Below are positions 1 to 38,783 of a DNA stretch of 64,000 nt, piece after piece. Within the stretch, counting starts at the first letter, position 1; the number at the start of each line of letters is the position of its first letter. Position numbers and translations under genes: made by a program. The notes beneath the pieces were generated by a model. That model was not told the DNA's origin. It made no database searches and saw only the letters and a list, made by a program, of their open reading frames with translations. The stretch is from NCBI GenBank assembly GCA_965197905.1, contig CBDAOB010000001.1, positions 64,001 through 128,000 on the forward strand, given 5' to 3'. The DNA is from Candidatus Latescibacterota bacterium. Its GTDB lineage: Bacteria; Latescibacterota; UBA2968; UBA8231.

Positions 1-252
1 GCGGTGGAGGCCAATGACGATGGCCAGTCCCGCACCCACCTGAAGGGCGGCAAACACCAGCGCGAAAAGGGCGAAGAGCTCGCCGTTCAACTCGCCGTGC
101 AGTCGGGCGAATCCGGCGATATTCAGCGCCGCGGCGTTGAGCATCAGCCCCGACGAAAGGACTACGGCGAGGGCGTTTCTGCGCATGAGCATGCCCGCCA
201 ATCCGATGCAGAACAGGGCGGCGCTGACGATGAGGATGGGGAACGGCTGCAT
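1..252 (-). CDS. nuoK: NADH-quinone oxidoreductase subunit K-like, 3' end runs off the window; divergent
   Basis: Hand translation MQPFPILIVSAALFCIGLAGMLMRRNALAVVLSSGLMLNAAALN...FAALQVGAGLAIVIGLHR fits the NuoK 3-TM pattern (RRN, MxNA, GLA). Its ATG overlaps the nuoJ TGA. Not in the ORF track. Confidence 0.88.
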   Translation of the reverse strand, partial: MQPFPILIVSAALFCIGLAGMLMRRNALAVVLSSGLMLNAAALNIAGFARLHGELNGELFALFALVFAALQVGAGLAIVIGLHR

Positions 253-767
253 CACGAGGTGTGTTGCCCTCCGGGGGCGCTGCCGGCGGCCGAGTCGGGA
301 CTCGTCAAGACCGACGTGCCCACAGCCACCACCAGAAACGCGAACCCGGTCAAAAGCAGTGGCAACAGGAAGTCGCCGACGAGAGACCCCGCCAGACTAC
401 CGGTCTGCTCCATCTCGGAGATTGAACCACCCGCTGGCAGAATCAAGCAGAGCAGGGAGAACAAACAGGCACAAAGGACGGCAGCGACCATGGTCCCGAC
501 GCGAACCCGTCTGACCGCGACGGCGGACTTGAGGTTGGTGGAAACCCCCACCACGAGACAGAGGAGAGCTGAGCCGGATAACCCTATAAGGACTTCGCTG
601 GCCCCCAACAAAGGAGTGCCGAGCTGCAGGAAAAGAGCGGCGATGCCAAGTGTAGTCGCGCCAAACAAGAAGGCGGCGCGCACGGCACTCCTTGCGGAGA
701 CGGTGAGAATCGCCATGATCAGACAAAAAACGGCAACCAGACCGAAGGCGGCAGCTTCCAGTGTCAT
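252..767 (-). CDS. nuoJ: NADH-quinone oxidoreductase subunit J-like; divergent
   Basis: Hydrophobic 5-TM protein MTLEAAAFGLVAVFCL...DFLLPLLLTGFAFLVVAVG located between nuoH and nuoK. ATGA overlap with the nuoH stop. Confidence 0.8.
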   Translation of the reverse strand: MTLEAAAFGLVAVFCLIMAILTVSARSAVRAAFLFGATTLGIAALFLQLGTPLLGASEVLIGLSGSALLCLVVGVSTNLKSAVAVRRVRVGTMVAAVLCACLFSLLCLILPAGGSISEMEQTGSLAGSLVGDFLLPLLLTGFAFLVVAVGTSVLTSPDSAAGSAPGGQHTS

Positions 768-2534
768 CTGTACACCAGCATATACGCAGCAATAGGAATA
801 TTGAGGGCGGTCAGAGGGATGGCCACCCTCCAAGCCCAGCACACGAGCTGGTCCATGGAGGGGCGCGGTACTACGAGGGTAGGGTCGAGAACTGGCGCGC
901 CAGCCTTAGGGTTCGGTGGGTTCCCCATGGCTTTCGCCATAGCCCTCAGTCCGACTCCCATCGCTACGTTTCCAGTTCCCGCCGCCTCAAACCGGACGTG
1001 CGGATCTCCCGCATCCGGCTTCCCGACGAACGTCACATCCAGGCACACGCCACAAGGACTTCACCTGGTAGTCAAGCTGCTTCCGATGCATACTAGTCTT
1101 ACTGCTGGAGGCAATAGGCTCACGCCACTCTCCAACCCTCTGCACTTCCGCAGCATGTCCGAAGTCAGGCCCCTTCCCTCCACCGGAGTTACCCGGCTTC
1201 CTCGGTACTACGCGCCTGTCCGCCACCTCATCCAGCCCAGTCTGGCCCTCGCGGGTTACCGGTTGGAGGCACTCGCTGCTTCCACCGGATGAGGCTTCCC
1301 GTGTTGCGCCACATCTCCTCTTACACACATGCTGTCGCCACTACCCCGGCGGAACAGCTGGGTGCGCTTGTCGCTCGACTTCCCCAGCTGCAGCGGCCTT
1401 CCCTGGTTTACGGGCAGGTCGGCTTCCGCATTACACTTTTCGAGGCCTGCTCAGCGTTTACTCACGTTACGGCCTGTGTGCTCGCCAAGTCGCCCAAGGC
1501 GACCCTCTACACCGGAGGCTTCAGCGGCTTCGTCGCCTCCACCACTGCTCCGATTGCTACCGGCTGGAGCGACCCTTGCCGGGTGGGATTCGCACCCACT
1601 GAAGATGTGCGCCTTAGCACGGCGCACCGTAACCATTGTGTGAACAACATGAACAGCATCGATTTCGCCAACAGCAGAGCGACCCCAAGGAGCGCCCACC
1701 CCCCCCTCCTTCCCCTTCCGCGACGAACGGCAAGTGCCAGCCGCCAAGGTAGAGCGTCGCCACCAGCAGGCTCGCGGCCAGCAATCGCAAGCGCCCGGCA
1801 AGGGCCAGCAAACCCAGCGGGAGTCCGCTGTAGGAGGCTGCGTAACCGGCCTCCATTTCCTGAGACCGGCCCGAATCGAGTGGTAGGCGGTCGGCGAACG
1901 CGAAGGTTGCCGCCACCATTCCGAGGAAACCAAGTGGCTGGACCAGCAGATTCCACCGTGGCAGAAGCCCTGGAGTTGCCGCTTGGGAGCGAACGATCTC
2001 CGCCAGTTGCATGGATCCGCCGGCCAATGCCACGCCAGCTATCGCCAATCCTGCAGCGATACCAAAACTCACGACCTGCGACGCCATATTCAGCGAAGCG
2101 ATCTGGGCATAACCGTGACCGGAACCCCGGCCCGCCGCGATCAACCCGAAAGCGGCAAGCGGGATTAGCGCCACGACAACCATTGTACCGGCGCCGGCGG
2201 ATGCCAGCTGCAGTGACATGGAGAGTCCTCCGATCTCAACATCTTTCCCGAATGGAATCAAGCCAAGCAGAATCAGCGGCGGCAGCAGCGAAACGAGGGG
2301 CGCCAGGAAGAATATTCGTCGGTCACCAGCCTCCGGAGCCACACACTCCTTGCACATCAGCTTCAGGCCATCGGCGTAGGTTTGCAGCAGTCCAACGCCC
2401 CTAGCCCCGTCGTACCGTCCAGTGGCGACCCGGGTCCAACCCCTTTCAAGGAGAATGGAGAGCGGAATGAGGATACCGAAGGTCGCCCCCAGCAGCACTG
2501 CCGCCTTGATCACCAGAATGGGAATCTCTTGCAT
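764..2534 (-). CDS. nuoH: NADH-quinone oxidoreductase subunit H-like; exon 1 2534-1628, exon 2 878-764; frameshift at the C8 run 1699-1706
   Basis: LLER..GLLQTYADGLKLMCKE..FFLAP..YLGGW motifs. After the frameshift and intron removal it reads AKSMLFMLFTQWLR/LVVPRPSMDQLVCWAWRVAIPL, matching the NuoH C-terminal WxRxxxPRxRxDQL pattern. Confidence 0.88.
879..1627 (-). mobile_element. ORF-less group II intron (749 nt, IIB-like) inserted in nuoH
   Basis: 5' end GTGCG; 3' end ...TCGACCCTAC. Domain V GAAGCCGGATGCGGGAGATCCGCACGTCCGGTTTG at ~988-1022 with AGC triad. DIII-like GTAGTACCGAGGAAGCCGGGTAACTCCGGTGGAGGGAAGG. Removal restores the nuoH frame. No RT ORF. Confidence 0.93.
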
Positions 2535-2580
2535 GACTAACGTTCGCTCGTGTCCTCTACGAGAAATAGGTTGACCGTCG

Positions 2581-2684
2581 TCTGCTGCCGAGGCGCGGGG
2601 ATTGCAAGGCGCCTGAGCGAGCCTGTACTGGTGGAGTACGGCGAGTGAAGGCAACGCCGCAAGCCCCGATGGATCGGCGGCAGA
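2581..2684. repeat. Structured palindromic intergenic repeat (ERIC/MITE-like), copy 1
   Basis: Terminal inverted repeat TCTGCTGCCGA...TCGGCGGCAGA with inner stems; colinear and similar to 34495-34600. Confidence 0.75.
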
Positions 2685-4343
2685 CTACTTGCGATGGTCG
2701 TCCACATGCAGAAACCCCCATTGCTGTAAGCGATCTGACCAGCCGGCCCCGTAGGCCTGCCCAACTACTCTCTCGTCCTGTTCGCGACTCTGCAGCGACT
2801 CGTAGGTGAGTTCGCTGAATATGCCGCCGACCTCTTGACTCATTTCCACCAGTATCTCCTCTGGTTGCTGGAACTGCCGCTGCATCGCGGTCGCGGCCAG
2901 CCGTTGCAACACCTGCCATTCGGGCAGCACGCCGGGTGGCCCGGCGATGCAGCCCCGTATCCGCTGCACTCTACCGTCGAAATTGGTAAAGGTGCCTTCC
3001 TTTTCGAAAGGCGTCAGTCCGGGAACCACCAGATGCGCGGACTCGGTCAGCGACGAAGGGATGGTCGCGTGGACGACCAGCAACTCTAACTCGTCGAAGG
3101 TGTAGCCACCCGTCGACATCGATTCCACCAGCGCATCCGAGCCGACGACATAGGCGCGGGTGATGGTGCGGTCGACGATACCCGCCATCAAGCGCTGTGT
3201 GGATTCCAGCTCAATGTCGAGTGCACTGGCGATCTCCTTTACTCCGCGCCCGTTGGGTGTTCTGTCCTCACGGATTGTGAACCCCGACTTGAAGGCGATT
3301 TCCCGGCCCTTTCTACCTTCTTCGAAACAGACCAGTTGCGCGCCCCAGACATCCGTGGCCAGCTTCAGCAGCAGGTACGCCTCCTCGTTGGTCAGTGTGC
3401 CATTCAGCACCACCGCCAAACCGCCCTCCGCACCCAACAGGTGACGGTCGGCAAACGCCAGTGCCTGTTCCCACGTCGCCTGCTCTTGGTCGCCGCCCTC
3501 CCGGATACGCGGTTCCGCGAGCCGATCGTGGCGCTGGATTTCCCGCCAGCCGTAGCGGCCCTCGTCGCACATCCAATAGCCGTTTACCGCCAGGTTGGCT
3601 CGAGGTTTGAGCCGCTGGATGTCGCCGCTGTAGACATCGACCCTGATATTGCAGCCGGAACTGCAACCGGGGCAGATCGAGTTTATACCCTGAAGTGTCC
3701 AAGGAGGTGGATCGAATCGAGACTCGGGTTCGACTAGAGCGCCCACGGGGCAGATGTCAACGTTGTTCCCGGACATACCGTCTTGCAGTTCTCTTCCAGG
3801 AAACAGGCTGACCACGGTTTCCGCTCCCCGAAATGCCGGACTGAGCTCGCCTCCCCCCGAGATCTCATCCGTGAACCGGGCACAGCGATTACAGCCAATG
3901 CAACGGCTGGAATAATACGACACCTGCGGACCAAAGCGTACCGGCGGCGCGTTCCTTTTCGGCCATTCCGCATCGCTCCATTTTGGACCATGGGAGTCGG
4001 CATGATCCTGCAGCTCGCATTCGCCGGCTTTGGAGCAGGTGGAACAGTCGAGAGCGTGTTTCCGAAGCAGAAACTCCAATACATCCGATCTCGCTTTCAG
4101 CACCGCCTCGGAGTTCGTGGAAACAACTAGTCCGTCCACCACCGGCTGGTTGCAGGTAGGCGCCAGCACGGTGGAACCGCCGTCGCCGAACTCGGCCACG
4201 CACAGCCTGCAGCTGGCGGGACTGGAGAGTGCCGGATGGAAACAGAAGTGTGGAATGAACTCACCGGCTTGCAAGGCGGCGAGCAGTAGGTTGCCGCCCT
4301 GGCGCACCTCTATCGTTTCGCCGTTCAGCTGGATTGTTGGCAT
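2685..4343 (-). CDS. nuoG: NADH-quinone oxidoreductase subunit G-like Fe-S protein (short form)
   Basis: IPHFCFHP..SCRLC..PTC (2Fe-2S), HALDCSTCSKAGECELQD, RCIGCNRC..DICPVGAL, SICPGCSSGC..WMCDEGR. Likely start MPTIQLNG. Confidence 0.88.
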   Translation of the reverse strand: MPTIQLNGETIEVRQGGNLLLAALQAGEFIPHFCFHPALSSPASCRLCVAEFGDGGSTVLAPTCNQPVVDGLVVSTNSEAVLKARSDVLEFLLRKHALDCSTCSKAGECELQDHADSHGPKWSDAEWPKRNAPPVRFGPQVSYYSSRCIGCNRCARFTDEISGGGELSPAFRGAETVVSLFPGRELQDGMSGNNVDICPVGALVEPESRFDPPPWTLQGINSICPGCSSGCNIRVDVYSGDIQRLKPRANLAVNGYWMCDEGRYGWREIQRHDRLAEPRIREGGDQEQATWEQALAFADRHLLGAEGGLAVVLNGTLTNEEAYLLLKLATDVWGAQLVCFEEGRKGREIAFKSGFTIREDRTPNGRGVKEIASALDIELESTQRLMAGIVDRTITRAYVVGSDALVESMSTGGYTFDELELLVVHATIPSSLTESAHLVVPGLTPFEKEGTFTNFDGRVQRIRGCIAGPPGVLPEWQVLQRLAATAMQRQFQQPEEILVEMSQEVGGIFSELTYESLQSREQDERVVGQAYGAGWSDRLQQWGFLHVDDHRK

Positions 4344-4397
4344 GGTTTCCGATGGTCGCAATATGTCAAAACGTTGACGCTGGTGTTGAGCATCGTG

Positions 4398-5740
4398 TTA
4401 GAAGCGGACGCTGACCGCTTCGGGGACCTTGATCGCCAGATCTTTTTCGACGGGACAGCCGCCAGAATCGATATGCTGTCTGAATTCGCTCTCGAACGCG
4501 CTTACAAACCCTGCAGCGGCCAGGCGAAGGCGGCTCCCAGGCCACACAGCATCGGCGATGCCGAAACCATCAGCGGCCCCATTTTTTCACCTAACTCGAA
4601 CAACCTGCCGAGATCTCCTTCCGTACCTTCCCCCGATTCGACCCGGGCGATAATGTCGCGCATCCACGGCATCCCCTCGCGGCACGGGGTGCACTCGCCG
4701 CAGGATTGCCCGGCGTAGAATTCGGCTAGATTGAGGGCGGCATCTACCATACAGGTCGTCTCGTCCATGACAATGATCCCGCCAGTGCCGAAAACACCGC
4801 CGAACTCTCCTCCTCCCGGGTGCAGCCACGCTGCCGGATCCAGAGGCACATCCAGCTGGTCGGCGTGTAGAACCGGCGACCGACCTCCCCCCGGAAGCAC
4901 GGCCTTCAGCTGATGCCCCGAGCGCACGCCACCCCCCATCTCGTAGATGACTTCACGCAAGGTCGAAGCCCCCAGCGGCAGTTCGTATAGGCCCGGCCTG
5001 CTCACGTGTCCGCTCAGGCAAAAAACGAGGGTGCCGGGATACCCCTCGCTACCGATGCCTCGGAACCAGTCGGCGCCGTTGTTCACGATGTGAGGCAGAT
5101 ATGCCAGGGTACCGATATTGGCGACCTCCGCCGGCTTGCCGAAGAGCTCCGGGACGACCGCGGTGCCGCGGGGTTCCGCCCTGAAACCTTCGATAGAGCG
5201 CAGGAGAGCCGTCGCTTCGGTCTCGATATAGGCGTCCCCGCCTGGATGTACATACACCTCGAGAGCATAACCCGTCTCCCGAACGTTGGCGCCCAGCCAG
5301 CCGTGCTCGCGCGCCGACGCTATAGCCCGCTCCAGCAACGCTCGGCCCCGGCTCATATCGCTACGCAGGCAAACGTAAACGGTCGAGGCGCGCAGAGTGT
5401 ACGCGGCGATGATAATGCCTTCGAGTATCTGATGGGGATTGCGCTCCAGCAGCTTCCGATCGCGGAACGTGCCCGGTTCGCTCTCGTTGCCACCGACACA
5501 GAGAAACTCCACTCTGCCAGCCCGTTTCTGGGCATGGTTTCTCCACCGGGCAGCGACGGGGTACCAGTCGCCGCCCCTGTCCTGCAGACCGGACTGTTCG
5601 ATCAGGTCCAGCACCTCGCCCGGTGGTCGGCGTCGCACAGCGATCTCCGCGGCGGCGTAACCTCCGTTGGCGACATAGGTGTCCCACAGTTCGATGTCGG
5701 GGACGTCGATGTCGTTCAACAGCACGCGAAACTCAGCCAC
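4398..5740 (-). CDS. nuoF: NADH-quinone oxidoreductase subunit F-like; divergent flavin site; frameshift at ~4506-4508
   Basis: ESEPGTFRDR, SGHVSRPGLYE, QSCGECTPCREG, MLCGLG. Adding one T restores the C-terminus GFVSAFESEFRQHIDSGGCP...VRF* ending at 4398. Confidence 0.88.
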
Positions 5741-6224
5741 CGGACTCTCCCTCTAGCGAAAGCTTCAATCTCTCAAGGATCTGATCGATGCGTTCCAGCG
5801 TGAGACTCTGATGCAACTCGCCATCGACCAGTATGACCGGGCCCATGCCGCAACAGGCAAGGCAATCAACTTCCTCCACGGCTACAAGCGAGTCGCTGAC
5901 GTCGATCTCCGCCAACCTCTCTTTCAGGTACTCAACCACCCGCGTGGCCCCCATCAACCGGCAGGAGAGCGTACCGCAGACACGAATCAGGTGTGCTGGC
6001 GGCGGTTGGAGACGAAAAGCGGGATAGAAGGTGGCTACTCCATAGACCCGGGCGGGAGAAAGATTCAGCTTGCCCGCAACGAACTCGATGGCCTCTTCCG
6101 AGAGGTAGCCAGCCTCACTCTGAACCAGATGCAACACCGGCAGCAAGGCCCCGGATGGCTGGGGATAACGGCGGGTGAGATCGTCGTACTCCACCACCGC
6201 TTTTGCCGAAAGCTTGAAGCTCAT
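5733..6224 (-). CDS. nuoE: NADH-quinone oxidoreductase subunit E (2Fe-2S)
   Basis: ALLPVLHLVQ..GYL..VYGVATFY, VCGTLSC, CLACC. Confidence 0.9.
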   Translation of the reverse strand: MSFKLSAKAVVEYDDLTRRYPQPSGALLPVLHLVQSEAGYLSEEAIEFVAGKLNLSPARVYGVATFYPAFRLQPPPAHLIRVCGTLSCRLMGATRVVEYLKERLAEIDVSDSLVAVEEVDCLACCGMGPVILVDGELHQSLTLERIDQILERLKLSLEGESGG

Positions 6225-7920
6225 CGATCCACCTCTCCGGCTACCACGTTGAGGCTACCCAACACCACCAGCGCCTCGGATAGGGTCATCCCATGAGCGA
6301 CATGTTCAAAGAGCTGATAATTCAGAAACGATGGCGCCCGCACCCGCAAACGGTACGGACGGTCGGAACCGTCGCTGACGATGTAGAATCCCAGCTCACC
6401 GTTGGGCGATTCGGTGGGTAAATAGGAGTCCGCGTCTGGAGGCGGCTGAATTCCGTGTCCTTCCATCCAGAGTTTGAAGTGGTGAATCATGGATGATGCC
6501 TGACTGGAGATCTCACTCCTCTGTGGGCGCCGAGCGTTTGAATTCATCGTCGAGTAGTCGCCGCCGGGAAGATCGCGGAGCGCCTGGCTGACGATGCGGC
6601 AGCTCTGGACGAGCTCTTCGACACGCACCAGATAGCGGTCGTGCACATCGCCGGTTACTCCCACAGGGACGTCGAAATCGAACTCTTCGTAGGCGCTGTA
6701 CGGCTCGTCCTTTCGCAGATCGCAACCGACGCCTGCCGCCCGCGCCACCGGGCCGCTCAACCCCCACGACCTGGCTTCGGCCACACCGATCGTCCCGACC
6801 CACGCGCCCGATCCAACCACACTCCATTGCCGTCCCACAGCGCTCGAAGCTCGGCGACCCCGCGCATCATGTCCGACAGAAATGCCGATACCCTTGCTGA
6901 GAATTCGGGCGGCAGATCGGCGGCGATTCCGCCCACGCGAACGAAGCTTGTCATCCATCGGTTTCCCGCAATGGATTCGTAGATGTCGCACAGCGCTTCC
7001 CGCCGCGTGTCAACAAGCTGGAACAGACCGTGGGCAGCGATTTGCCGGGCCTGAGACCCCAACCAGATGAGATGCTCGCCGATGCGCCCCAGTTCGCTGA
7101 GTATAACCCGGGCATACTGGGCTCTTTCAGGAACATCGACGCCCAGCAAGCGCTCGACGCACAGAACAAAGGCGAGGTTGTTGCAGAACGGCGATTGATA
7201 GTTGATCCGGTCGGTGACAGTTACAAACTGCATGTAGCTCTGATTTTCACCCAGCTTCTCTACGCCCGAATGAACAAATCCAAGATCCAACCCCACCCGA
7301 GATATCATATCCCCTTCCGCTTCCAGGTCGGCGCTCAGATTGCCTGTCATTCCCGGGTGAAGCGGCCCCAGCCGCAGGAGGTTGGAGTCGTCGACACCTT
7401 GTTGGTTCCCGGGCGCCTCCTCGCCGGGGGGCGAAACCCCGACCGGGGCAGAGCCGCACCCGGCGACGGGAAAGTCCTTGCGCAATGGAAATGATTCGAA
7501 ACTGTCGGGAAGCAGGATTCTGCGCATGTCCGGATGACCGCGGAAACGGATGCCAAACATGTCGTAGACCTCGCGCTCGAGCCAGTTCGCCGCAGGCCAC
7601 GAAGAAGCGATGCTTTCCACTTCATCGATATCCGGATCTAGTGGAACCCTGAGGCGAAGCCGGAAACCTGAGATGGACGAACGCAGTTGGTAGACGAGTT
7701 GGAAACGTTTGCCACGGCCCAGGTGGAGTCGGTCCACAGCCGTGAGGTCAACGAGGGTGTCCAACCGATCGCCATCGTGGCCGCTTAAGAATTCCAACAG
7801 AGGTTCCAGATCGGCAACCGAGACGTCCAGCGTCCACTCGCCCCGCAACTCTAGAGGTTGCAGGCGAGCTGCCCCCAGGAACTCCCGCAGGTCTAAGAGG
7901 ATCGGGGTTTCGGTTGCCAT
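6221..7920 (-). CDS. nuoCD: Fused NADH-quinone oxidoreductase subunit C/D-like; frameshift at ~6800
   Basis: NuoC motifs [33 protein letters not shown]. NuoD motifs [41 protein letters not shown]-terminal GEVDR. ORFs 6757-7971 and 6221-6991 join with one extra G in the GGG run. Confidence 0.9.
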
Positions 7921-7936
7921 AGCGGACGCAGCCAGC

Positions 7937-8311
7937 CTAGCGAAATCCGCTCTTGCGCCAAGCGTACACAAGACCGGTCCCGACGATGACCATAAAACCG
8001 AGAATCCCGGCTACCGAGTCGTGGCCGCGCTCAAGCAGAGTGCGGAATTCAGCTGCCCAAATCAGCAGGAAGGCCAAAACGCCTGGCAGCATCAAAGTCA
8101 CGAAGACAAATCCGTAATAACGGAAGGGAAATTCACGCGGTCCTCCGAACGCGGGCCGTCCCGATTCGAACCTGGAGGTTGCGGTGCCGGTGGGTTGGTC
8201 CGGCCGCAGTCGCCGTGCAATCATCGAGCAGAAAAATACCCCCGCCAGCGCCATGATTATCAGAATTGGGATGGCGGCGTACTGCTCTATCGTCGGGGGG
8301 TAGGTTGACAC
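7937..8311 (-). CDS. nuoA: NADH-quinone oxidoreductase subunit A-like; divergent
   Basis: 3-TM protein with a FESG loop, FRYY and C-terminal GLVYAWRK; first gene of the operon. Confidence 0.85.
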
Positions 8312-8422
8312 GATTAGGTGGCCGCCATGGCTCGCAAGGCACCCGGAGTGCTCAAGGACGAGCGCCGAATCAAATAATCCGGCCTCAGGCCGCGAGCCGG
8401 GATGGATCGCGGTAGCAGGAAA

Positions 8423-8665
8423 TCAGACCGTCGTCGCTTCGCTTCTGGTGCTAACTGCCTCACCCGATTGCGACGAGAACTCGTCGTCGTCCGAACACGA
8501 ACCTGGAGGAGCGCCACACTCGCAGAGGGGTTGTCCGAACTCGTCGCTCATGGCACTCAGGCCGCCACAGGACCCTTTGATACGGCGGTTGCTAAAGATC
8601 ACACCGACCGCCATACCGGCAATGACTAAGCCAAATACCAAAAGCGCTGCAACGTACTGTTCCAC
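8423..8665 (-). CDS. nqrM: Na+-NQR maturation protein NqrM (DUF539-like)
   Basis: Single TM followed by [12 protein letters not shown]; directly after nqrF. Confidence 0.85.
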
Positions 8666-8677
8666 TAATCCTCTTTC

Positions 8678-9916
8678 TCAGCCGAAGTCGTCGAAACGGA
8701 TCATTTCCTGCTCGACACCGAGGTCGTCGAGCATCTTCATCACCGCCTGCAACATCAGTGGCGGGCCGCACAAATAGTATTCGATATCTTCGGGCGCCGG
8801 GTGTTGCGACAGGTAGTTGTCGAGGACCACCTGGTGAATGAATCCCATGTAGCCAGTCCAGTTGTCTTCGGGCAACGGTTCAGACATGGCAACGTGGAAT
8901 TTGAAATTTGGATATTCCGCTTCGATCTTGCGGAAATGATCCTCGTAGAACAGCTCTTTGCTGGAACGAGCCCCGTACCAGTAGGAAACCTTGCGGTTCG
9001 TGTGTTCGGTATGAAAGAGGTGAAAGATGTGCGATCGCAACGGAGCCATGCCGGCCCCACCTCCGACGTACATCATCTCGCGCTCAGTTTCCTGAATGAA
9101 GAACTCCCCGAATGGACCGGAAATAGTCGCTTTGTCCCCCGGTTTGAGATTGAATACGTAAGAGGAGACGATTCCCGGATTCACATTCATCCACCCTCCC
9201 TTTTCGCGGTCGGGGGGAGGTGTGGCGACGCGAATATTCAACATGACGATGTTGCCTTCGGCCGGGTGGTTCGCCATGGAGTAGGCTCGGACTACGGTTT
9301 CGGGGTTGACCGTCTTCAAATCCCATACCCTGAAGCGGTCCCAGTCATCGTGGAATCTTTCTTCGATGTCGAAACCGCGGAAGTCGCATTCGAACGGCGG
9401 CACCTCAATCTGAATAAACCCTCCCGATTCGAAGTTGAGTATCTCGCCCTCGGGTAGCTTGAGAACCAGCTCTTTTATGAAGGTGGCGACGTTGTTGTTC
9501 GACACCACTTCGCACTCCCACCTCCTCACCGAGAAAACTTCTGCGGGTACGTCTATTTTCATGTCCTGCTTGACGCTGACCTGGCAGGACAGCCGCATCC
9601 CCTCGCGAGCTTCGCCCTTGGTAATGTGCTCCAGCTCGGTAGGCAGTATATCTCCGCCTCCATCGTGCACGTGGACCTTGCATTGGGCGCAGGTGCCTCC
9701 GCCACCACATGCGGACGAAACGAAGATCTGACTGTCGGCCAGTGCGTTCAACAGCTTGCCGCCAGTGGGCACCGAAATGGAGCGGTCCGGATCGTTGTTG
9801 ATAAGGATGTTGATATCGCCGCTGGGTACCAGCCGCGAGCGGGCGACGAGAATCAGCGCCACTAGAAACAACACGACCATGGTGAACATGCCGACGCCGG
9901 CGCCGATCTCAGTCAT
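8678..9916 (-). CDS. nqrF: Na+-translocating NADH:quinone reductase subunit F
   Basis: [47 protein letters not shown]. Confidence 0.97.
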
Positions 9917-9965
9917 CTGAACATTCTCTCTCTATCATTCACCCTGAGAAGCTTGCGACAGGACA

Positions 9966-10577
<612 letters not shown>

Positions 10578-10579
10578 AA

Positions 10580-11206
10580 TTAATGCCGATCCTCTTCGAT
10601 CTGCTCCATTTTAAACGACCGTAGCACCCAGATAAACACTCCGATGATGAAGAATGCACTGGGTGGCAGGAGCATCAGTCCATTCGGTGCGTACCACCCT
10701 CCCTCGGCTACGAGTGAAAAAACCTCGACTCCCAGCAGCGTGCCCGAACCGAAGAGCTCGCGAATCACCGCGACCACCAGCAAAATGACACTGTAGCCGA
10801 TGCCGTTACCGATTCCGTCCAACAGGCTCGTTCCCACCCCGTTTTTCATGGCGAACGCCTCGGCTCTACCCATGATGATGCAGTTGGTGATGATGAGACC
10901 GACAAAGACAGACAACTGCTTACTGACATCGAAGGCATACGCCTTCAGAACCTGATCAACAATGATGACCAGAGAGGCAATGACGGTCATCTGCACGATA
11001 ATGCGGATGTTGGTCGGCACGTGCTGTCGAATCAGACTGACTCCCATGTTGGAGAAAGCCAGCACGAAGATAACGGCGAGACACATCACCATCGCCGTCT
11101 CCAGTTTGCTGGTGACAGCCAGTGCCGAGCAGATACCGAGTATCTGTAGAGCGATCGGGTTGTTATTGAAGACGGGGTCGAGCAGGGTCTCTTTGTTCTT
11201 AGCCAT
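10580..11206 (-). CDS. nqrD: Na+-NQR subunit D
   Basis: [39 protein letters not shown]. Confidence 0.97.
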
Positions 11207-11975
11207 GTTTCCGCGCTTTCAACTGTTTGAGGTACGGGCCGAAACCGCTGTCGCCCAGCCAATAGGTCAACATGTTGGTTACACCTCTAGCGGTAATGGT
11301 TGCCCCCGAAATACCATCAACTTGATATCTCGATTCGAAACGCGAAGGATCCGCTTTGCCCTTGATGACGGTAATTCGCAGCTTGCCGCTCTCGTCGAAA
11401 GCGCTCTTGCCGTTCCACAGCGCTTTCCACGCCGGATTGTCCACCTCGCCACCGAGTCCGGGGGTTTCCATGTGTTCGTAGTAAACCAGAGCGCGTATCG
11501 TCGAGAGGTCGCGGGCATCAAGAGTGACGAAACCGTAAAGGGTGGACCAAAGTCCGAGCCCGTGCACTGGCAGAATGATCTTCCGGACCTCGTCGCCCTT
11601 GCGCACGAGATAGACCGAAGCCTGTTTCGCCCGGCGTTTGATATCCCCCAAGTCTTCTTCAGTTGGCACCTGGATGCTCGTCGCCGGATCCTTGGCCGCC
11701 CGGCGCTGATCGTAGGCCTGGGGGTCGATCCCTTCGGCGTAGTGACCGGTCTCCAGCTCGACCACCTTGGTTTCGATAGCCTCAAAAAGCTCGTCGATGC
11801 TCTTCTCGCCTTCCTCGAGCCCGGCAGCCATAAGGATATTGCGTTTTTTGTCGAGGCTCTTGTTGACCGTCTGAATCGGCCGCAAGTAGACAGCCGCACT
11901 CGAGACCAGCACCGAGCAAACGACACACAAAAGGAACGCCACGAAGAAGGTCTTGCCGATGGTTTCCTTAGCCAC
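11199..11975 (-). CDS. nqrC: Na+-NQR subunit C
   Basis: [20 protein letters not shown]-attachment motif DGISGATIT. Confidence 0.96.
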
Positions 11976-11998
11976 GATACACTTCCACTAGGTTGTTC

Positions 11999-13209
11999 TC
12001 ATGCTGCCGTTCGCAGCAACCGGCGTTTGATGTTCGCCTGAACCGCGAAATGGTCCAGGACCGGGGCAAATACATTTCCAAAGAGGATGGCGAGCATCAC
12101 ACCTTCCGGGAACGCCGGATTCACCACCCGAATCAGCACCGTCATGATTCCGATCAGCAAGCCGTACGCCCACTTGCCTGCGTTGGTCATGGTGGCAGAG
12201 ACCGGATCGGTGGCCATAAAGACCGTGCCGAAGGCGAATCCGCCAAGGAGGAGGTGCCACATCGGATCGACACCAAACATCGGATTGGTCGAGCTGCCGA
12301 TCGCATGCAGCAACGCCGCCAGTCCGACTGTCCCCACGGTCATGCTCAGCATGATACGCCAGGACCCAATGCCGGTGGCAATGAGAATAAAAGCGCCGAT
12401 GAGACATGCCAGGACCGAGGTTTCACCCATCGATCCGGGAATGACCCCCAGAAACGCTTCGATGGGGCTCATGCTGCTAAGGTGGGCGGCGAGGCCGTCC
12501 GCCGGCACCAGACCCAGTGGAGTCGCGTGTGTATAACCGTCCACCGCCACCCAGATCGCGTCACCCGTAATCTCGGCCGGATACGCGAAATAGAGGGAAG
12601 CGCGCGAGGTGAGCGCGGGATTCAGAAAATTCTTGCCGGTTCCGCCAAACACTTCCTTGCCGATAATGACACCGAAGGCAATGCCGATCGCCACCTGCCA
12701 GAGCGGGATGGTCGGCGGCAACGTCAGCGGGAAGAGCAAACCGGTAACAAGGAATCCCTCGTTGATATCGTGGCCGCGTATCAAGGAAAAGATCGCTTCG
12801 ATGGTACCGCCGACGATCATACATACCAGGTAGACCGGCAGAAAATAGAGGGCGCCGTGGAAGATGTTCGAGACGAAACTCCCCGGGCTGTATGGCACCT
12901 CCATTGCGTCCATTACGACGCCACGCCAGCCGCCCGCCGACTGCAGGCCCATCTGCTCCATCGCGATGTGGACCTGATAACCGGTATTCCACATCGCCAT
13001 GAAAACACACGGAATGAGCGCCACAACCACGGTGATCATCATGCGCTTGAGATCGAGCCCGTCGCGTACGTGGGAAGCCCCACTGGTGACCTGCCCTGGC
13101 GTAAACAGAAAAGTGTCTGTGGCTTCGAACGCCGGATACAGCTTTTCCAGCTTGCCCCCCTTGGTGAAGTGGGGCTCGGCCGCATCTAGCATGTCGCGCA
13201 GGAACTTCA

Positions 13210-13210
<1 letters not shown>
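11999..13210 (-). CDS. nqrB: Na+-NQR subunit B
   Basis: [50 protein letters not shown]. Confidence 0.97.
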
Positions 13211-14583
<1,373 letters not shown>

Positions 14584-14638: not shown

Positions 14639-14667
14639 AAGATAGAGAAGGCCCCGGGTATCGTCAA
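14639..14667 (-). promoter_or_regulatory. Putative sigma70 promoter for the nqr operon
   Basis: TTGACG-17 nt-TATCTT on the minus strand ~80 bp upstream of nqrA, beside an AT-rich tract. Confidence 0.55.
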
Positions 14668-14904
14668 ATAACTTTTCAGCTCTAACCGCGATTCTCATCA
14701 TTTACTTATCTATTTAAAAATCAACTACTTGAGCGTCGTGACCGAAGTGCGATAGAGAGCTACACTCGGGTTCGTGCCTTGGTTTGCTTGCCGTCGGAGA
14801 GCAAAACGCATTGCTTCTTTCGGTATGAACGGTTCGCTCCGAACAGGGCCGATCACCGGCCGAAAACCCCCGAAAGAATCCATCGCGCGCAAGGGTCGCC
14901 TACC

Positions 14905-15849
14905 GTGACCAGAGACGAGGTTGCCGAGCTGTTTCGGACCCCTCTGCTCGATCTGGTTTTCAGGGCGGCCGCTTGCCATCGCCAGCATCACCGCAGCGAT
15001 GAGGTGCAACTCTGCACGCTGCTTTCGGTGAAGACAGGAGGATGTTCAGAGGACTGTGGTTACTGTGCACAGTCGGCCCATTTTGAGACCGGCCTGGAAC
15101 GTCAGGAACTGCTGCCGTTGGATGAGGTCATGAGCGCAGCGCGGGCAGCGAAAGAGGCCGGCAGCACCCGATTTTGCATGGGGGCCGCGTGGCGCCAGAT
15201 TCGCGATGGAGAGGAGTTTGAGCGGCTCTTGGAAATGGTTCGCAACGTCGCCTCGCTGGAGATCGAGGTGTGTTGCACCCTTGGCATGGTCACGGCAGAT
15301 CAAGCCCGCAGATTGAAAACCGCCGGCCTCACGGCGTATAACCACAACCTGGATACCGGGGAAGAATTCTACGACAGGGTCGTGACGACCCATAGCTATG
15401 CCGACCGACTGCAGACGATCGGCGTTGTGGGCAAGGCGGGCATCTCCGTCTGCTGCGGCGGCATTCTCGGAATGGGTGAGTCGGATGACGACCGCATAGA
15501 TCTGCTGTTTACCCTGGCCACCTTGCCGACGCAACCGGAGTCGATTCCAGTAAATGCGATCGTACCGGTCAAGGGAACCCGTATGGGCGAGCGGCACCCT
15601 CCTTCGACCCTGGAGCTGGTGCGAGTTATCGCCGTGGCGCGAATCCTAGTGCCGACGGCGATGGTGCGACTCTCCGCCGGACGCGATCGATTCACCGACG
15701 CGGATCACGCCCTCTGCTTTCTGGCCGGAGCAAACTCGATCTTCACCGGCGACAAGCTACTTACCACTCCGCATCCGGGTCGGGAAGCAGATGCCGCGCT
15801 CCTGGATCTCTTGAACTTGCAACCCCGTTCGCCTAGTGTGCTGTCGTAG
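14905..15849 (+). CDS. bioB: Biotin synthase
   Basis: Radical SAM motif CSEDCGYC, RFCMGAAW, YNHNLDT, VRLSAGR, GANSIF.GDKLLTT. The GTG start at 14905 is inferred (ORF is open from 14779). Confidence 0.95.
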   Translation: MTRDEVAELFRTPLLDLVFRAAACHRQHHRSDEVQLCTLLSVKTGGCSEDCGYCAQSAHFETGLERQELLPLDEVMSAARAAKEAGSTRFCMGAAWRQIRDGEEFERLLEMVRNVASLEIEVCCTLGMVTADQARRLKTAGLTAYNHNLDTGEEFYDRVVTTHSYADRLQTIGVVGKAGISVCCGGILGMGESDDDRIDLLFTLATLPTQPESIPVNAIVPVKGTRMGERHPPSTLELVRVIAVARILVPTAMVRLSAGRDRFTDADHALCFLAGANSIFTGDKLLTTPHPGREADAALLDLLNLQPRSPSVLS

Positions 15850-17882: not shown

Positions 17883-19067
17883 TCAATCCTGCCGTTCACG
17901 CCAAGCTTCCAATAGGTCGGCAACGTGGTCTACCTGGTCGGCATGGTGCTCGGCGCTAATGGTGAGGCGGAGCCGGCAGCTTCCCTTTTCCACGGTGGGC
18001 GGTCTCATGGGTACGGCGAAGATTCCGTTATCCTCGAGCCATGCGGCCAACCGAATAACTTCCTGTTCCCCGCCGACGATGAGCGGCACAATCTGCGAGC
18101 TGGATTTCCTGCAATCCCAGGAGCGCGAACGCAAGGTTGTCAGCAACCTTGCGGCATTCTTCTGAAGTCGCTCACGTTCGCCGTCCATGGTCGGCACCAG
18201 ATCGAGGGCCGCGTCGATGGCACCCAGCACCCCCGGTGGCAAGGCAGTGGAAGAGATAAAACCGGAGCAGCAGTTGATGAGATAACTGCGCAGACGCTCG
18301 GAGCAGGTAGCGAATGCTCCAAAGGAACCACACGCCTTTCCAAAGGTTCCCACAACCAGATCGACGTTCGGATCGCAGGCCAGACCCGAGCCATGAGGAC
18401 CCAGCACACCGAACCCATGGGCATCGTCGACGATGAGAAAGGTGTCGAACTCGTCCCTCAGCGCCAGCAGCGACGGGAGATCGCAGCGATCCCCTTCCAT
18501 GCTGAACACGGACTCGCTAATCACGACTATCCTCTCTGTCGATCGCGCCCGCAACCTGCGCAGCTGATCACGCAATTGATCCATGTCATTGTGGGCATAA
18601 CGCCGGATGGTCGCCCGGCTCGCCAACGCGCCGTTCACCTGGCTGCTGTGGCAGGCTCGATCCATAGCGACGAACGAGTGGCGATCGCAAAGAGCCGGCA
18701 ATAGCGACGTATTCGCCTGGTAGCCGGAATTGAAAATCAGCGCGCTGGCGGCGCCTTTCATTGCCGCAAGTTTGTTCTCAAGCTCGCTCACAAGTGGGCT
18801 TGTCCCGCACACAAGACGCGAGGCGGTGGAACCAGACCCGCTCGTCCCGATCTGCTCAATGGAGCGCCGCTTCAACTCTGGATGAAATGCCAGTCCCAGA
18901 TAGTCGTTCGAACTGAAGTTGACCAGGTTGCGCCCGTCGACCTCTATCCGACCGCCGGGAAGCGGTTTCACATCGCGCAGGTGTCGCAAACGATGTAGCG
19001 CTCCGCGACGTTCAAGCTCGCGATCGACGAAGTCGTAACGGCTGGTTTTCGAGGGAGTAACGGTCAA
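17883..19067 (-). CDS. bioF: 8-amino-7-oxononanoate synthase
   Basis: NFSSNDYLGL, SGYQAN, ESVFSMEGD, DDAHG, GTFGKA, RPPTV. Confidence 0.94.
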   Translation of the reverse strand: MTVTPSKTSRYDFVDRELERRGALHRLRHLRDVKPLPGGRIEVDGRNLVNFSSNDYLGLAFHPELKRRSIEQIGTSGSGSTASRLVCGTSPLVSELENKLAAMKGAASALIFNSGYQANTSLLPALCDRHSFVAMDRACHSSQVNGALASRATIRRYAHNDMDQLRDQLRRLRARSTERIVVISESVFSMEGDRCDLPSLLALRDEFDTFLIVDDAHGFGVLGPHGSGLACDPNVDLVVGTFGKACGSFGAFATCSERLRSYLINCCSGFISSTALPPGVLGAIDAALDLVPTMDGERERLQKNAARLLTTLRSRSWDCRKSSSQIVPLIVGGEQEVIRLAAWLEDNGIFAVPMRPPTVEKGSCRLRLTISAEHHADQVDHVADLLEAWRERQD

Positions 19068-19076
19068 AATACCACC

Positions 19077-19105
19077 TTGTCTGCGGCTGCGCTGAATGCT
19101 ATAAT
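19077..19105 (+). promoter_or_regulatory. Putative sigma70 promoter for panB
   Basis: TTGTCT-17 nt-TATAAT with an extended -10 TG, 40 bp upstream of the panB ATG. Confidence 0.65.
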
Positions 19106-19145
19106 TGTAGACACCATTTTCGATCTTGTGTGAGACCGAGGAACC

Positions 19146-20054
19146 ATGTTTTCCAAGTCGGCGAAGTCAAAAATTACGGTATCCCATTTGCAGGTCAAAA
19201 AAAATGAGGGGCGGAAGATCTCCGCCTTGACCGCCTATGACTATCCCACCGCCCGACTCCAGGACAAAGTGGGCATAGACGTCATTCTGGTTGGTGATTC
19301 GCTCGGCACCAACGTGCTCGGCTATCGCACAGAGCACGAGGTCACCCTCGACGACATTCTGCATCACAGCAAGGCGGTGCGCCGAGGCGTCGAACATGCC
19401 TTTGTCCTGGCCGATATGCCGTTCATGTCCTACCAGCCATCTGCTGAGTTGGCGCTGATTAATGCCGGGAGGTTGATGCAAGAAGGTGGAGCTGACGGAG
19501 TGAAGCTGGAAGGGGGCATCCGCATTCTGCACCAGATCGAAGCTTTGATCGCCGCCGGCATACCCGCGATGGGACATCTCGGATTCACTCCCCAATCCAA
19601 AACCAGAGACTACTACCTATTTAGCGAAGGGCGTGGAACCGTACCGAAATACCAGGGAAAAGGTCCTCAGGGGGCGAAGGAGATCTTCGACGAGGCGATG
19701 ATGCTGGAAGACGCCGGAGTTTTCGCTATCGTGCTCGAGCAGGTAACCGAGGAGGCGGCCCAGATCATCTCCCAGCGCCTGACGATCCCCGTCATCGGCA
19801 TCGGCTCGGGGCGCTATTGCGACGGCCAGATTCTGGTGGTCAACGATCTGTTGGGACTGAACGAGGACGTGCCACTGCCGGCCAAAGCCTACACCTCGTT
19901 GAATGGCAAGCTTCGCGATAGCTTCACTGCATACCGACGGGAGGTGGAGGCTGGTCAGTTCCCGGCCGGGGACAACGCCGTGCACATGGAATCTGGGAAA
20001 TTGCAGAAATTCCAGGACCTCTTGGGCGAAAAACAAGAGGAACAAAAACTGTAG
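19146..20054 (+). CDS. panB: 3-methyl-2-oxobutanoate hydroxymethyltransferase
   Basis: LTAYD, LVGDSLG, ADMPFMSY, VKLEGG, GHLGFTPQ, IGIGSG..DGQILV. Confidence 0.96.
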   Translation: MFSKSAKSKITVSHLQVKKNEGRKISALTAYDYPTARLQDKVGIDVILVGDSLGTNVLGYRTEHEVTLDDILHHSKAVRRGVEHAFVLADMPFMSYQPSAELALINAGRLMQEGGADGVKLEGGIRILHQIEALIAAGIPAMGHLGFTPQSKTRDYYLFSEGRGTVPKYQGKGPQGAKEIFDEAMMLEDAGVFAIVLEQVTEEAAQIISQRLTIPVIGIGSGRYCDGQILVVNDLLGLNEDVPLPAKAYTSLNGKLRDSFTAYRREVEAGQFPAGDNAVHMESGKLQKFQDLLGEKQEEQKL

Positions 20055-20167
20055 CTCCCTGGTCGTCATTACCCCGAACGCATCTACTTCAGCTGACACA
20101 CGAGATCCATAACGAGTGTCCGGGCGCGCTGCCCCCGCGCTCCGATTTCCCGAAAACGGAGGTATAA

Positions 20168-21697
20168 GTGCATCTCAGATCGATCGCAATTGCCGCGTTT
20201 CTGGTGGTGGTCGCCGCCTCGTCCCAGGCTTGGGGACAGGACGTAGATAACACCTGGATCCAGGACAGGCTGGCGAAACTCGACGATTTCTTCGGCGCCA
20301 CGGTGGCCGTGATGGCCGCAGTACTGTTTGCCGATTTCGGCACCGGCTTGCCGCTGATAGTCGCGGTGCTGTTGGCCGGCGGCATCTACTACAGCTTTTA
20401 CTTCGGCTGGATGTCGATCCGCGGGTTCAAACATGCGATTCACGTCATTCGTGGACACTACGACAAACCGGACGATCCGGGAGAGATCTCCCATTTTCAG
20501 GCTTTGACCAGCGCGCTCTCGGCAACCGTAGGCCTGGGCAACATCGCCGGGGTGGCCATCGCTGTCAGCATCGGTGGGCCAGGTGCCATCTTCTGGATGC
20601 TCGTCACGGCCGTTTTCGGCATGTCCTCCAAGCTCGCCTCGTGCACGTTGGCGGTGATGTACCGCAAGGTGAACGCTGATGGCCACGTCTCCGGCGGACC
20701 GATGTATTACCTGGAGAACGGTTTGAGGGAAAAGGGGCTGTACCCCACCGGACGCACGCTCGCGGTGCTGTTTGCGCTGCTGACCATCGGGGGCAGCCTG
20801 GGTGGCGGCAACATGTTTCAGGCCAATCAGACGCTGGAGATTCTCGGCACTGTGTCGCCGGCGTTCAAAACCTACAACTGGGTGGTAGGAATCGGCTTGG
20901 CCGCCGTCGTAGCGGTCGTCATAATCGGCGGGATTCGGCGCATCGGCAGGGTCACCTCGCGCATCGTGCCCTTCATGTGTCTGCTCTACGTGATTACCTC
21001 GCTGATCATCATCTCCTCGCACATCGGCGAGGTACCCGCCATGCTGGCGATGATCATCAGTCAGGCGTTCGACCCGACCGCGGTTTATGGAGGATTCCTC
21101 GGCGTGATGGTGACCGGCATTCGACGGGCCGCATTCTCGAACGAGGCCGGCCTCGGGTCAGCAGCTTTCGCTCATGCCGCGGCCAAGACCGACGAGCCCG
21201 CACGGGAGGGCATGGTGGCGATGATCGGTCCGTTCATCGATACCATCGTGATCTGTCTCATGACCGGCATGGTCTGCATGGTCACCGGTATCTACAACGT
21301 CCCCGAATTCCAGGGACAACAGGGGACCGCGGTAGGGGTTCGGATGACCGCGGCCGCCTGGGATTCCTTCTTCTCGGGGGCGCGTTACATCCTGGCGGTG
21401 GCGGTCGTCTTCTTCGCCTACTCCACCATGATCTCCTGGTCATACTACGGCGAGCGCGCCTGGGAGTACTTGTTCGGGGCCCGGTCGACGCTGGTCTATC
21501 GGGTAATCTTCGTCTGTTTCGTTTTCATGGGATCGGTTGCCGCGCTCGGGAATGTTCTGGATTTCTCGGACATGATGATCCTGGGCATGGCGTTTCCGAA
21601 CATTATCGGAGGTGTGATCCTCAGCCCACAGATCAAAGCGGTTCTCCAGGACTATTGGAAACGTCTGAAATCGGGCGAGATGGTGGATTATCGCTAG
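20168..21697 (+). CDS. Alanine/glycine:cation symporter (AGCS family)
   Basis: ATVGLGNIAGVA, GGPGAIFWM, GGPMYYL, FSNEAGLGSA, FIDTIVIC. Confidence 0.93.
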   Translation: MHLRSIAIAAFLVVVAASSQAWGQDVDNTWIQDRLAKLDDFFGATVAVMAAVLFADFGTGLPLIVAVLLAGGIYYSFYFGWMSIRGFKHAIHVIRGHYDKPDDPGEISHFQALTSALSATVGLGNIAGVAIAVSIGGPGAIFWMLVTAVFGMSSKLASCTLAVMYRKVNADGHVSGGPMYYLENGLREKGLYPTGRTLAVLFALLTIGGSLGGGNMFQANQTLEILGTVSPAFKTYNWVVGIGLAAVVAVVIIGGIRRIGRVTSRIVPFMCLLYVITSLIIISSHIGEVPAMLAMIISQAFDPTAVYGGFLGVMVTGIRRAAFSNEAGLGSAAFAHAAAKTDEPAREGMVAMIGPFIDTIVICLMTGMVCMVTGIYNVPEFQGQQGTAVGVRMTAAAWDSFFSGARYILAVAVVFFAYSTMISWSYYGERAWEYLFGARSTLVYRVIFVCFVFMGSVAALGNVLDFSDMMILGMAFPNIIGGVILSPQIKAVLQDYWKRLKSGEMVDYR

Positions 21698-25795: not shown

Positions 25796-25826
25796 GGTCG
25801 GACTCGCCACCGGTCAGAAGATCCTG

Positions 25827-27479: not shown

Positions 27480-27483
27480 CCCG

Positions 27484-28896: not shown

Positions 28897-28902
28897 TGTG
28901 AT

Positions 28903-37479: not shown

Positions 37480-37543
37480 GAACGGGCGGGGGGCGGGCGC
37501 TTTGTGCCGGGATACGACCCCGCGAGATCGACCTGTGTGCGGT

Positions 37544-38737: not shown

Positions 38738-38783
38738 CGATCGTTCAGAGAATGTTTCCAATGGAATCCGGCTTGGGGGACAA

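Follow-up and report, generated by a model that had tools for sequence, protein, structure and literature searches.

The 64,000-nucleotide stretch analysed here (the window) comes from a Candidatus Latescibacterota bacterium (NCBI GenBank assembly GCA_965197905.1, contig CBDAOB010000001.1, positions 64,001 to 128,000 of the forward strand), and its first 8,311 positions carry an operon of genes homologous to the nuo genes of respiratory complex I. This operon probably encodes an ancient complex I paralogue that is structurally conserved and catalytically inert, i.e. one in which the fold has been kept and the chemistry lost. The evidence lies in the absence of nuoB and nuoI in cis, in the replacement of residues in the quinone site, the acidic chain, the channels and the flavin site, in the purifying selection that the operon has experienced, and in a deep family of similarly altered subunits. 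An earlier reading of the letters and ORFs of this stretch (the original prediction) had proposed that the operon does not specify a standard pumping complex I, being either repurposed or slowly decaying. Its observations are confirmed, and its interpretation is partly supported.

Operon layout and the absence of nuoB and nuoI in cis

Genes were called from the open reading frame (ORF) listing together with Pfam. Two related loci serve as references, namely: L001, on the chromosome of a Latescibacterota metagenome-assembled genome (MAG; OZ244235.1) with ~88% DNA identity to the window, and L002, a normal 14-gene nuo operon within Latescibacterota. In L001, 11 of 11 nuo genes are intact, lie in the same order as in the window, continue with L-M-N and contain no intron. 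The operon in the window lies on the minus strand in the order A-CD-E-F-G-H-J-K, and its features, together with the adjoining nqr genes, are as follows:

7937-8311, minus strand: nuoA-like gene (124 amino acids (aa), GTG start; Pfam PF00507), with LPGV in place of FDxE
6221-7920, minus strand: fused nuoCD-like gene (PF00329 and a split PF00346 match), in overlapping ORFs 6757-7971 and 6221-6991
5733-6224, minus strand: nuoE-like gene (163 aa; Pfam PF01257), with 4 of 4 2Fe-2S cysteines kept
4502-5740, minus strand: nuoF-like gene (412 aa versus 448 aa in L001), with the four N3 cysteines kept
2685-4361, minus strand: nuoG-like gene (558 aa; Pfam match), 90% identical to NuoG of L001
764-2534, minus strand: nuoH-like gene as a whole, made up of the next three features
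1628-2534, minus strand: nuoH exon 1, with a +2 frameshift, SFG in place of SYE and the acidic loop lost
879-1627, minus strand: ORF-less group II intron of 749 nucleotides (nt) inside nuoH
764-878, minus strand: nuoH exon 2, whose stop overlaps the nuoJ ATG
252-767, minus strand: nuoJ-like gene (171 aa; Pfam PF00499), with the Tyr of the ...VYxGA... helix replaced by G
1-255, minus strand: first 85 codons of a nuoK-like gene (Pfam PF00420), which runs off the window edge
8423-14559, minus strand: nqrA-F and an nqrM-like gene (Pfam), all intact and directly upstream of the nuo operon

The true start of nuoG may be the ATG at 4343. Only 16 nt (7921-7936) separate the nuoA stop from the nuoCD ATG, the nuoCD stop overlaps the nuoE start as ATGA, and the nuoH stop and nuoJ start overlap in the same way at 764-767. 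The 16-nt A/CD gap and the H/J overlap therefore leave no room for nuoB or nuoI. The gene order, the gap and the overlap described in the original prediction are all borne out by the ORFs and Pfam matches, as is the tight translational coupling to which it had drawn attention.

The original prediction had also called nuoB and nuoI cleanly absent, and in cis this stands. With queries from canonical L002, a tblastn search of the window and of 80 related loci returned no match to NuoB or NuoI (E≤1e-5) for either the window (64 kb) or the L001 locus (21.7 kb), and Pfam found neither a NuoB domain (PF01058) nor a ferredoxin of the NuoI type among the 54 further ORFs of the window. The full set of complex I core subunits, including NuoB (cluster N2) and NuoI (N6a/b), is thus not present within the operon, the window or L001. 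This absence is established in cis only. Beyond cis the claim does not carry, since L023 and L042, two operons of Latescibacterota whose residues are all canonical, likewise have no nuoI between nuoH and nuoJ by Pfam; because of them, a nuoI or nuoB gene located elsewhere in the genome has to be allowed for. Five more loci (L022, L046, L048, L050 and L056) appear to have no nuoI by tblastn only. The nuoI-less canonical operons lie at 11643-13449 in L023 and at 11643-13465 in L042; there is no nuoA-D near the latter, and nuoL of L023 is found in two ORFs (13773-14579 and 14667-15638).

Altered residues, selection and a deep family

We judged the residue changes by alignment to solved complex I chains (PDB). 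Residues were matched by this alignment rather than by the E. coli numbers of the original prediction. As the window stops within nuoK, NuoL, NuoM and NuoN were read in L001. In NuoK, both membrane Glu residues are replaced, by G and Q. NuoH has SFG for SYE, PLDSG(R/T)S(Q/R)EM for PFDxxExExE, A(A/S)YSG for EYSG and PRPSMDQ for PRFRYDQ. FDxE of NuoA has become LPG(V/I), and ...YVGA... of NuoJ has become ...G(L/V)SG..., where the conserved Tyr is a G. In NuoD, GPxHPxxHG reads GPLHPGMTG, such that the second quinone-site His is a T in both the window and L001; the Asp of ALDxGA is a Q in both, and the Tyr of DRxxY is kept in the window. All of the replacements that the original prediction had listed for NuoK, NuoA, NuoH, NuoJ and NuoD hold against the solved chains.

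The losses go further than that list, extending to the NuoD Asp, to the motifs of NuoF and to the antiporter-like subunits NuoL, NuoM and NuoN, in which most of the channel Lys, Glu and His residues are gone. In NuoL of L001, E is replaced by V, K by R and KD by TG; in NuoM, K by N, H by Q, H by R and E by Q; and in NuoN, K by G, H by Q and K by R. NuoM and NuoN do keep the Glu of helix 5 and the Lys of helix 7. NuoF has GG(D/G)WY(P/S)VAARW for GAGFPTGxKW, YIETEA for YICGEE and NIGT for NVET; its canonical flavin and NADH motifs are lost. The Fe-S ligands of NuoE, NuoF and NuoG, aligned with canonical sequences, are all kept in the window, as the original prediction had noted. Measured against complex I, then, the encoded proteins retain the Fe-S ligands of NuoE/F/G and depart from it in the quinone site of NuoD, the acidic chain of NuoH/A/J/K, the channels of NuoL/M/N and the motifs of NuoF. 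The Pfam scores for NuoA, NuoH and NuoJ are a third to a half of canonical ones, e.g. 44.7 bits versus 120 bits in canonical L002 for NuoA (PF00507), and 42.6 bits versus a canonical 140 bits for NuoJ (PF00499).

In a comparison set of 80 related loci, the corresponding residues are canonical almost throughout: SYE is found in 45 of 46 NuoH, each Glu in 28 of 29 NuoK and FDx(E/D) in 39 of 40 NuoA, the sole exception each time being L001. The changes thus go well past what chance would give. All readable NuoF, NuoD and NuoH motifs in loci other than L001 are canonical as well. Partial clusters of Acidobacteriota (A-C-G-H) and NC10 (A-E-F-G-H-J-K-L) were considered as candidates of the same type and were rejected as relatives because they keep the canonical NuoH, NuoK and NuoA residues. 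The Acidobacteriota loci in question (L012, L014, L015, L016 and L020; ~9100-12800 in L012) hold nuoA, nuoC, nuoG and nuoH only, followed by a gene on the opposite strand.

The ratio of nonsynonymous to synonymous substitution rates (dN/dS) was computed pairwise between the window and L001, with bootstrap 95% confidence intervals (CI). For the eight genes together it is 0.180 (95% CI 0.154-0.209). Single-gene values range from 0.05 (nuoK) to 0.45 (nuoJ), with 0.32 for nuoA, and for no gene does the upper bound reach 1. The window copy is interrupted by three frameshifts (see below), and the codons downstream of them give values of 0.08, 0.08 and 0.17. The operon has been under purifying selection and is not in simple decay. 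A pseudogene cluster would be marked by a dN/dS near 1, the value by which the original prediction would have recognised a pseudo-operon, and by breaks in all copies; what was found is a dN/dS of 0.18 and frameshifts in the window copy alone.

Two further relatives bear on the state of individual genes. P0002 is an intact NuoCD of 566 aa that is 95.9% identical to that of the window, and P0123 is an intact, intronless NuoH that is 97.6% identical. Both are listed with a longest contig of 1,122,029, which we take to mean that they lie on one contig. Amino-acid changes are not in excess in the window lineage, with counts of 8 versus 9 and 5 versus 9 for NuoCD, and 4 versus 2 and 3 versus 3 for NuoH.

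The altered subunits belong to a deep family. In a set of 122 NuoCD sequences (120 matches, the window and L001), 17 lack the catalytic His and/or the Tyr, and these fall without exception into a single clade (local support 1.0); the DRxxY Tyr is lost in 8 of them, deeper members only. The proteins of the clade are full-length and go down to ~43-52% identity; one of them carries the label Candidatus Handelsmanbacteria. Canonical fused NuoCD, one of which is labelled Latescibacteria, make up its sister group, with a poor support of 0.48. Conservation was followed at 97 positions that are at least 95% conserved in 105 canonical sequences. Among 12 non-redundant clade members, 71 of these positions are still at least 90% conserved, 22 are partly conserved and 4 are lost, the last including the loop Asn, the His and the Asp. 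Such targeted loss within a conserved scaffold is taken to be the signature of a pseudoenzyme. The clade has no fixed replacement for the catalytic His (T, A, S, P, R or G), and ~30 positions of NuoCD are conserved in a clade-specific manner.

The same pattern is seen in other subunits. The flavin site is altered in 33 of 120 NuoF matches, in which the loop is conserved as GxWxP(V/L)Ax(R/K)W, and all 119 full-length matches have 4 of 4 N3 cysteines. In an exhaustive HMMER search aligned by a fast method, 15 of 150 NuoH representatives lack the Glu of SYE, and most of these also lack the acidic loop. The altered NuoF and NuoCD clusters are found on contigs of matching sizes (135308; 9296; 143661 and 49432), which implies that the two are co-located in deep members. 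A separate group of 16 of the 120 NuoF matches (P0153, P0157, P0162-P0167 and others) has GAWF(P/N/S)TG for GAGFPTG, its other motifs being canonical; Latescibacteria and Gemmatimonadetes are among its labels, and the group may be a working sister lineage of the altered form. Together with the low dN/dS and the retained gene overlaps and Fe-S cysteines, this deep, monophyletic family supports the proposal that the operon is not that of a standard pumping complex I and that selection has acted on it.

Frameshifts and a group II intron in the window copy

The window copy carries breaks that the original prediction had missed. Indels were called by aligning the window region to L001. A 1-nt deletion near 6799 puts nuoCD in two frames, and a 1-nt deletion near 4507 leads to an early stop in nuoF, removing the last ~36 residues. 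In nuoH exon 1, a 2-nt insertion gives the G run at 1699-1706 8 G, compared to 6 in an intact relative. A further 1-nt insertion at 2669 lies upstream of the nuoH start. The nqr genes (5.6 kb), aligned to L001 likewise, show no frameshift. Three frameshifts and an intron thus fall within ~7.7 kb of operon, and because of them the long ORFs that the original prediction had cited as a sign of selection fail for three of the eight genes.

The three frameshifts could well be consensus errors of the assembly, an explanation that we rate at a little under an even chance and under which the window copy would be as intact as its relatives. All three lie at short runs of the same base, the clearest being a G6 read as G8; the codons downstream are strongly constrained, with no acceleration of rate, and related records look, from their titles, like long-read MAG assemblies. 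On the other hand, 29 homopolymers of at least 6 bases lie outside the operon in sequence where the genes look intact, and random errors would be unlikely to put three indels into a single operon and leave nqr free of them. Among the ~50 other genes of the window, no more than three ORF junctions are doubtful. These comprise same-strand overlapping ORF pairs at 57819-57849 (minus strand, PAS and PAS-kinase) and 61967-61995 (minus strand, TLC/MFS and MFS-HEAT), and a pair at 40549-40645 (plus strand), neither member of which has a Pfam match. The overlapping pairs could be ordinary gene overlaps or further frameshifts, and they bear on the rate of assembly errors.

As the relatives are intact, the downstream codons constrained and the rate not in excess, the breaks are either very recent or errors. 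Given the three frameshifts and a recently inserted intron (see below), the window copy is therefore either newly inactivated or carrying assembly errors. The choice that the original prediction had offered, repurposed or decaying, consequently applies at two levels: the family is old and maintained, be it repurposed or inert, and this one copy is possibly starting to decay or is mis-assembled.

The intron in nuoH matches Rfam RF02003 at 106.8 bits (gathering score 49), and its domain 5/6 scores 39.2 bits against RF00029, just under the gathering score of 40. It begins with GUGCG at 1627 and ends in ...CUAC at 879, and it folds into a domain 5 hairpin and a long domain 6 whose bulged A lies 7 nt from the 3′ end. 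Pairing is possible between GTTACG, the last six bases of the exon, and CGTAAC at intron position 157. Once the intron is taken out, ...TQWLR is followed directly by LVVPRPSMDQ..., which is exactly the arrangement of the intronless L001 and P0123. The hallmarks of a group II intron are thus all found (GUGYG, domain 5, the bulged A of domain 6, 3′ AY and a restored junction), and on these features the intron is apparently splice-competent. No reverse transcriptase or maturase is encoded within it, and two minus-strand ORFs (987-1328 and 764-1048) have no Pfam match; the intron probably depends on a maturase supplied in trans, because it has no intron-encoded protein. No second copy was found in the window or in related loci. 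The insertion is recent, since L001 lacks it and so does P0123, the NuoH with 97.6% identity.

In its GUGCG start, its domains 5 and 6 with the bulged A, its 3′ AY and its Rfam matches to both D1-D4 and D5/6, the intron resembles bacterial ORF-less group II introns. It differs from them in lying inside a conserved protein-coding gene, whose frame its removal restores precisely. Such a position is rare for a bacterial group II intron, and a near-identical intronless relative is at hand for comparison.

Elsewhere in the window, positions 23111-31569 (plus strand) hold E2 and E3 genes flanked on either side by a full-length gene for pyruvate dehydrogenase E1 (894 and 888 aa), and a tandem pair of Peptidase_S58 (DmpA-like) paralogues lies at 36418-38761 (minus strand).

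A probable inert complex I paralogue among alternatives and known systems

If the operon does encode an inert paralogue, its proteins would still assemble into a particle with the shape of complex I, which would neither oxidise NADH, reduce quinone nor pump protons. The particle would be kept for a non-catalytic role, most plausibly as a structural partner in the respiratory membrane, and the position of the operon between the nqr and ATP synthase operons may be named beside this role. The nqr genes are likely to encode a working NADH:quinone oxidoreductase. They precede the nuo genes in L001 as well, where ATP synthase genes (a, b and delta; 18504-21674) follow directly after the nuo-like operon, giving the order nqr, nuo, atp. 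Between the nqrM-like gene and nuoA of the window lies a weak terminator-like GC hairpin (8380-8392, minus strand); a scan found no promoter between nqr and nuoA, and co-transcription is not settled by the hairpin. We propose more tentatively, and with the balance tipped slightly to the other side, that a whole 11-subunit complex I is maintained as a pseudoenzyme in a Latescibacterota-related clade, in a purely structural or regulatory membrane role. If so, it would be the first complex I retained for shape rather than chemistry.

Several points weigh against an inert but selected paralogue. The structural role is something that we infer, the gene context comes from two genomes only, and three genes of the window copy are broken. 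The genome may hold nuoB and nuoI at another site, given that L023 and L042 have no nuoI in cis and yet keep all canonical residues. The Arg of DR and the His of RIxxH in NuoD, both neighbours of cluster N2, are invariant in the altered clade, which would fit a NuoB that is still bound. Deep members of the NuoF clade keep YIAGEET, and nucleotide binding may not be fully lost in them. Furthermore, the dN/dS of the nuo genes is three times that of their nqr neighbours (0.18 versus 0.058), and NuoG of L001 (10001-11677) has an Arg for the first Cys of the N4 motif CxxCxxC...CP, which the window keeps; the lost Cys is a hint of relaxed constraint.

It is unlikely that the complex is instead a machine repurposed for new chemistry or transport, e.g. 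a sensor or carrier in which the remaining Fe-S chain or the membrane arm is put to a new use. The clade-specific conservation of the NuoF loop and of the ~30 NuoCD positions would suit such a machine, as would the retained Fe-S ligands, but the residues that replace the catalytic His are not conserved in the clade, no new Cys or His motif has appeared, and the hydrophilic axis of the membrane arm has been removed, not remodelled.

Slightly further down the scale stands a working enzyme with an altered redox reaction, joined by dedicated or shared NuoB and NuoI that are encoded elsewhere. The existence of same-phylum operons with canonical residues and no nuoI in cis speaks for such a supply, as do the retained N2-proximal residues of NuoD and the retained Fe-S chain of NuoE, NuoF and NuoG. 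However, the quinone-site His and Asp, the acidic chain of NuoH/A/J/K, the channel residues of NuoL/M/N and the flavin loop are gone regardless of NuoB and NuoI, neither of which is found in the window or in the L001 locus. Moreover, no second NuoG locus was returned from the L001 chromosome, a weak negative, as the scan catches only the exact peptide NGYWMCDE (present in 80 of 80 loci).

Equally improbable is a pseudo-operon, i.e. a functionless complex I relic in slow decay after Na+-NQR took over, for which the clustering of three frameshifts and an intron in ~7.7 kb next to 5.6 kb of unbroken, intact nqr genes, the near-absence of doubtful junctions in the other ~50 genes, the N4 cysteine missing from L001 and a dN/dS above that of nqr can be cited, and against which stand the 11 of 11 intact genes of L001, the intact NuoCD and NuoH of P0002 and P0123, a dN/dS whose CI is far below 1 and which stays low downstream of the breaks, full-length clade proteins at ~45% identity with 71 of 97 invariant positions kept, and the lack of any excess of amino-acid changes in the window lineage.

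An inert paralogue would bear on annotation. Genome annotation usually reads complex I as present or absent, and in the few records that carry names the altered proteins are labelled as ordinary Nuo subunits; metabolic reconstructions would therefore credit these organisms with a proton-pumping NADH dehydrogenase that is probably not there. If the complex is inert but selected, it provides a natural experiment that separates the parts of complex I needed for folding and assembly from those needed for catalysis, and one would have to ask what a particle shaped like complex I, but devoid of NuoB and NuoI, does in the membrane.

With canonical bacterial complex I (Nuo14 and Nuo13, L002-type operons, and the enzymes of T. 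thermophilus, E. coli and M. smegmatis), the operon shares 11 homologous genes in the same order, the fusion of C and D as in Nuo13, the gene overlaps, the Fe-S cysteines of NuoE/F/G and 71 of 97 NuoCD positions. It differs in having no nuoB or nuoI and in the replacement of the quinone, acidic-chain, channel and flavin residues. Complex I-like enzymes of 11 subunits keep the proton-pathway residues. In the open-access literature, we found no description of a complex I operon without nuoB and nuoI that bears these residue losses.

Other complex I relatives with a changed subunit set are known. Partial nuo operons without NuoEFG are discussed by Spero et al. (PMC4453560), and the case has been made that such enzymes are functional and not relics. 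The 11-subunit enzymes NDH-1, Fpo and the Campylobacter variant lack or replace NuoE/F/G and keep NuoB and NuoI, whereas the operon described here keeps NuoE/F/G and has lost NuoB, NuoI and the pathway residues.

The nearest concept, and a precedent, is that of the ‘deranged’ bc1 complex of Acetobacteraceae. Degli Esposti et al. (PMC10715153) describe a bc1 complex and COX1-like proteins in which the cofactor ligands are missing, and they propose a structural role for them. In both systems, respiratory genes are retained without their cofactor or catalytic ligands. They differ in that the ‘deranged’ proteins belong to complex III and one oxidase subunit in Alphaproteobacteria, whereas the present case concerns an entire 11-gene complex I of the Latescibacterota lineage with losses across all three modules.

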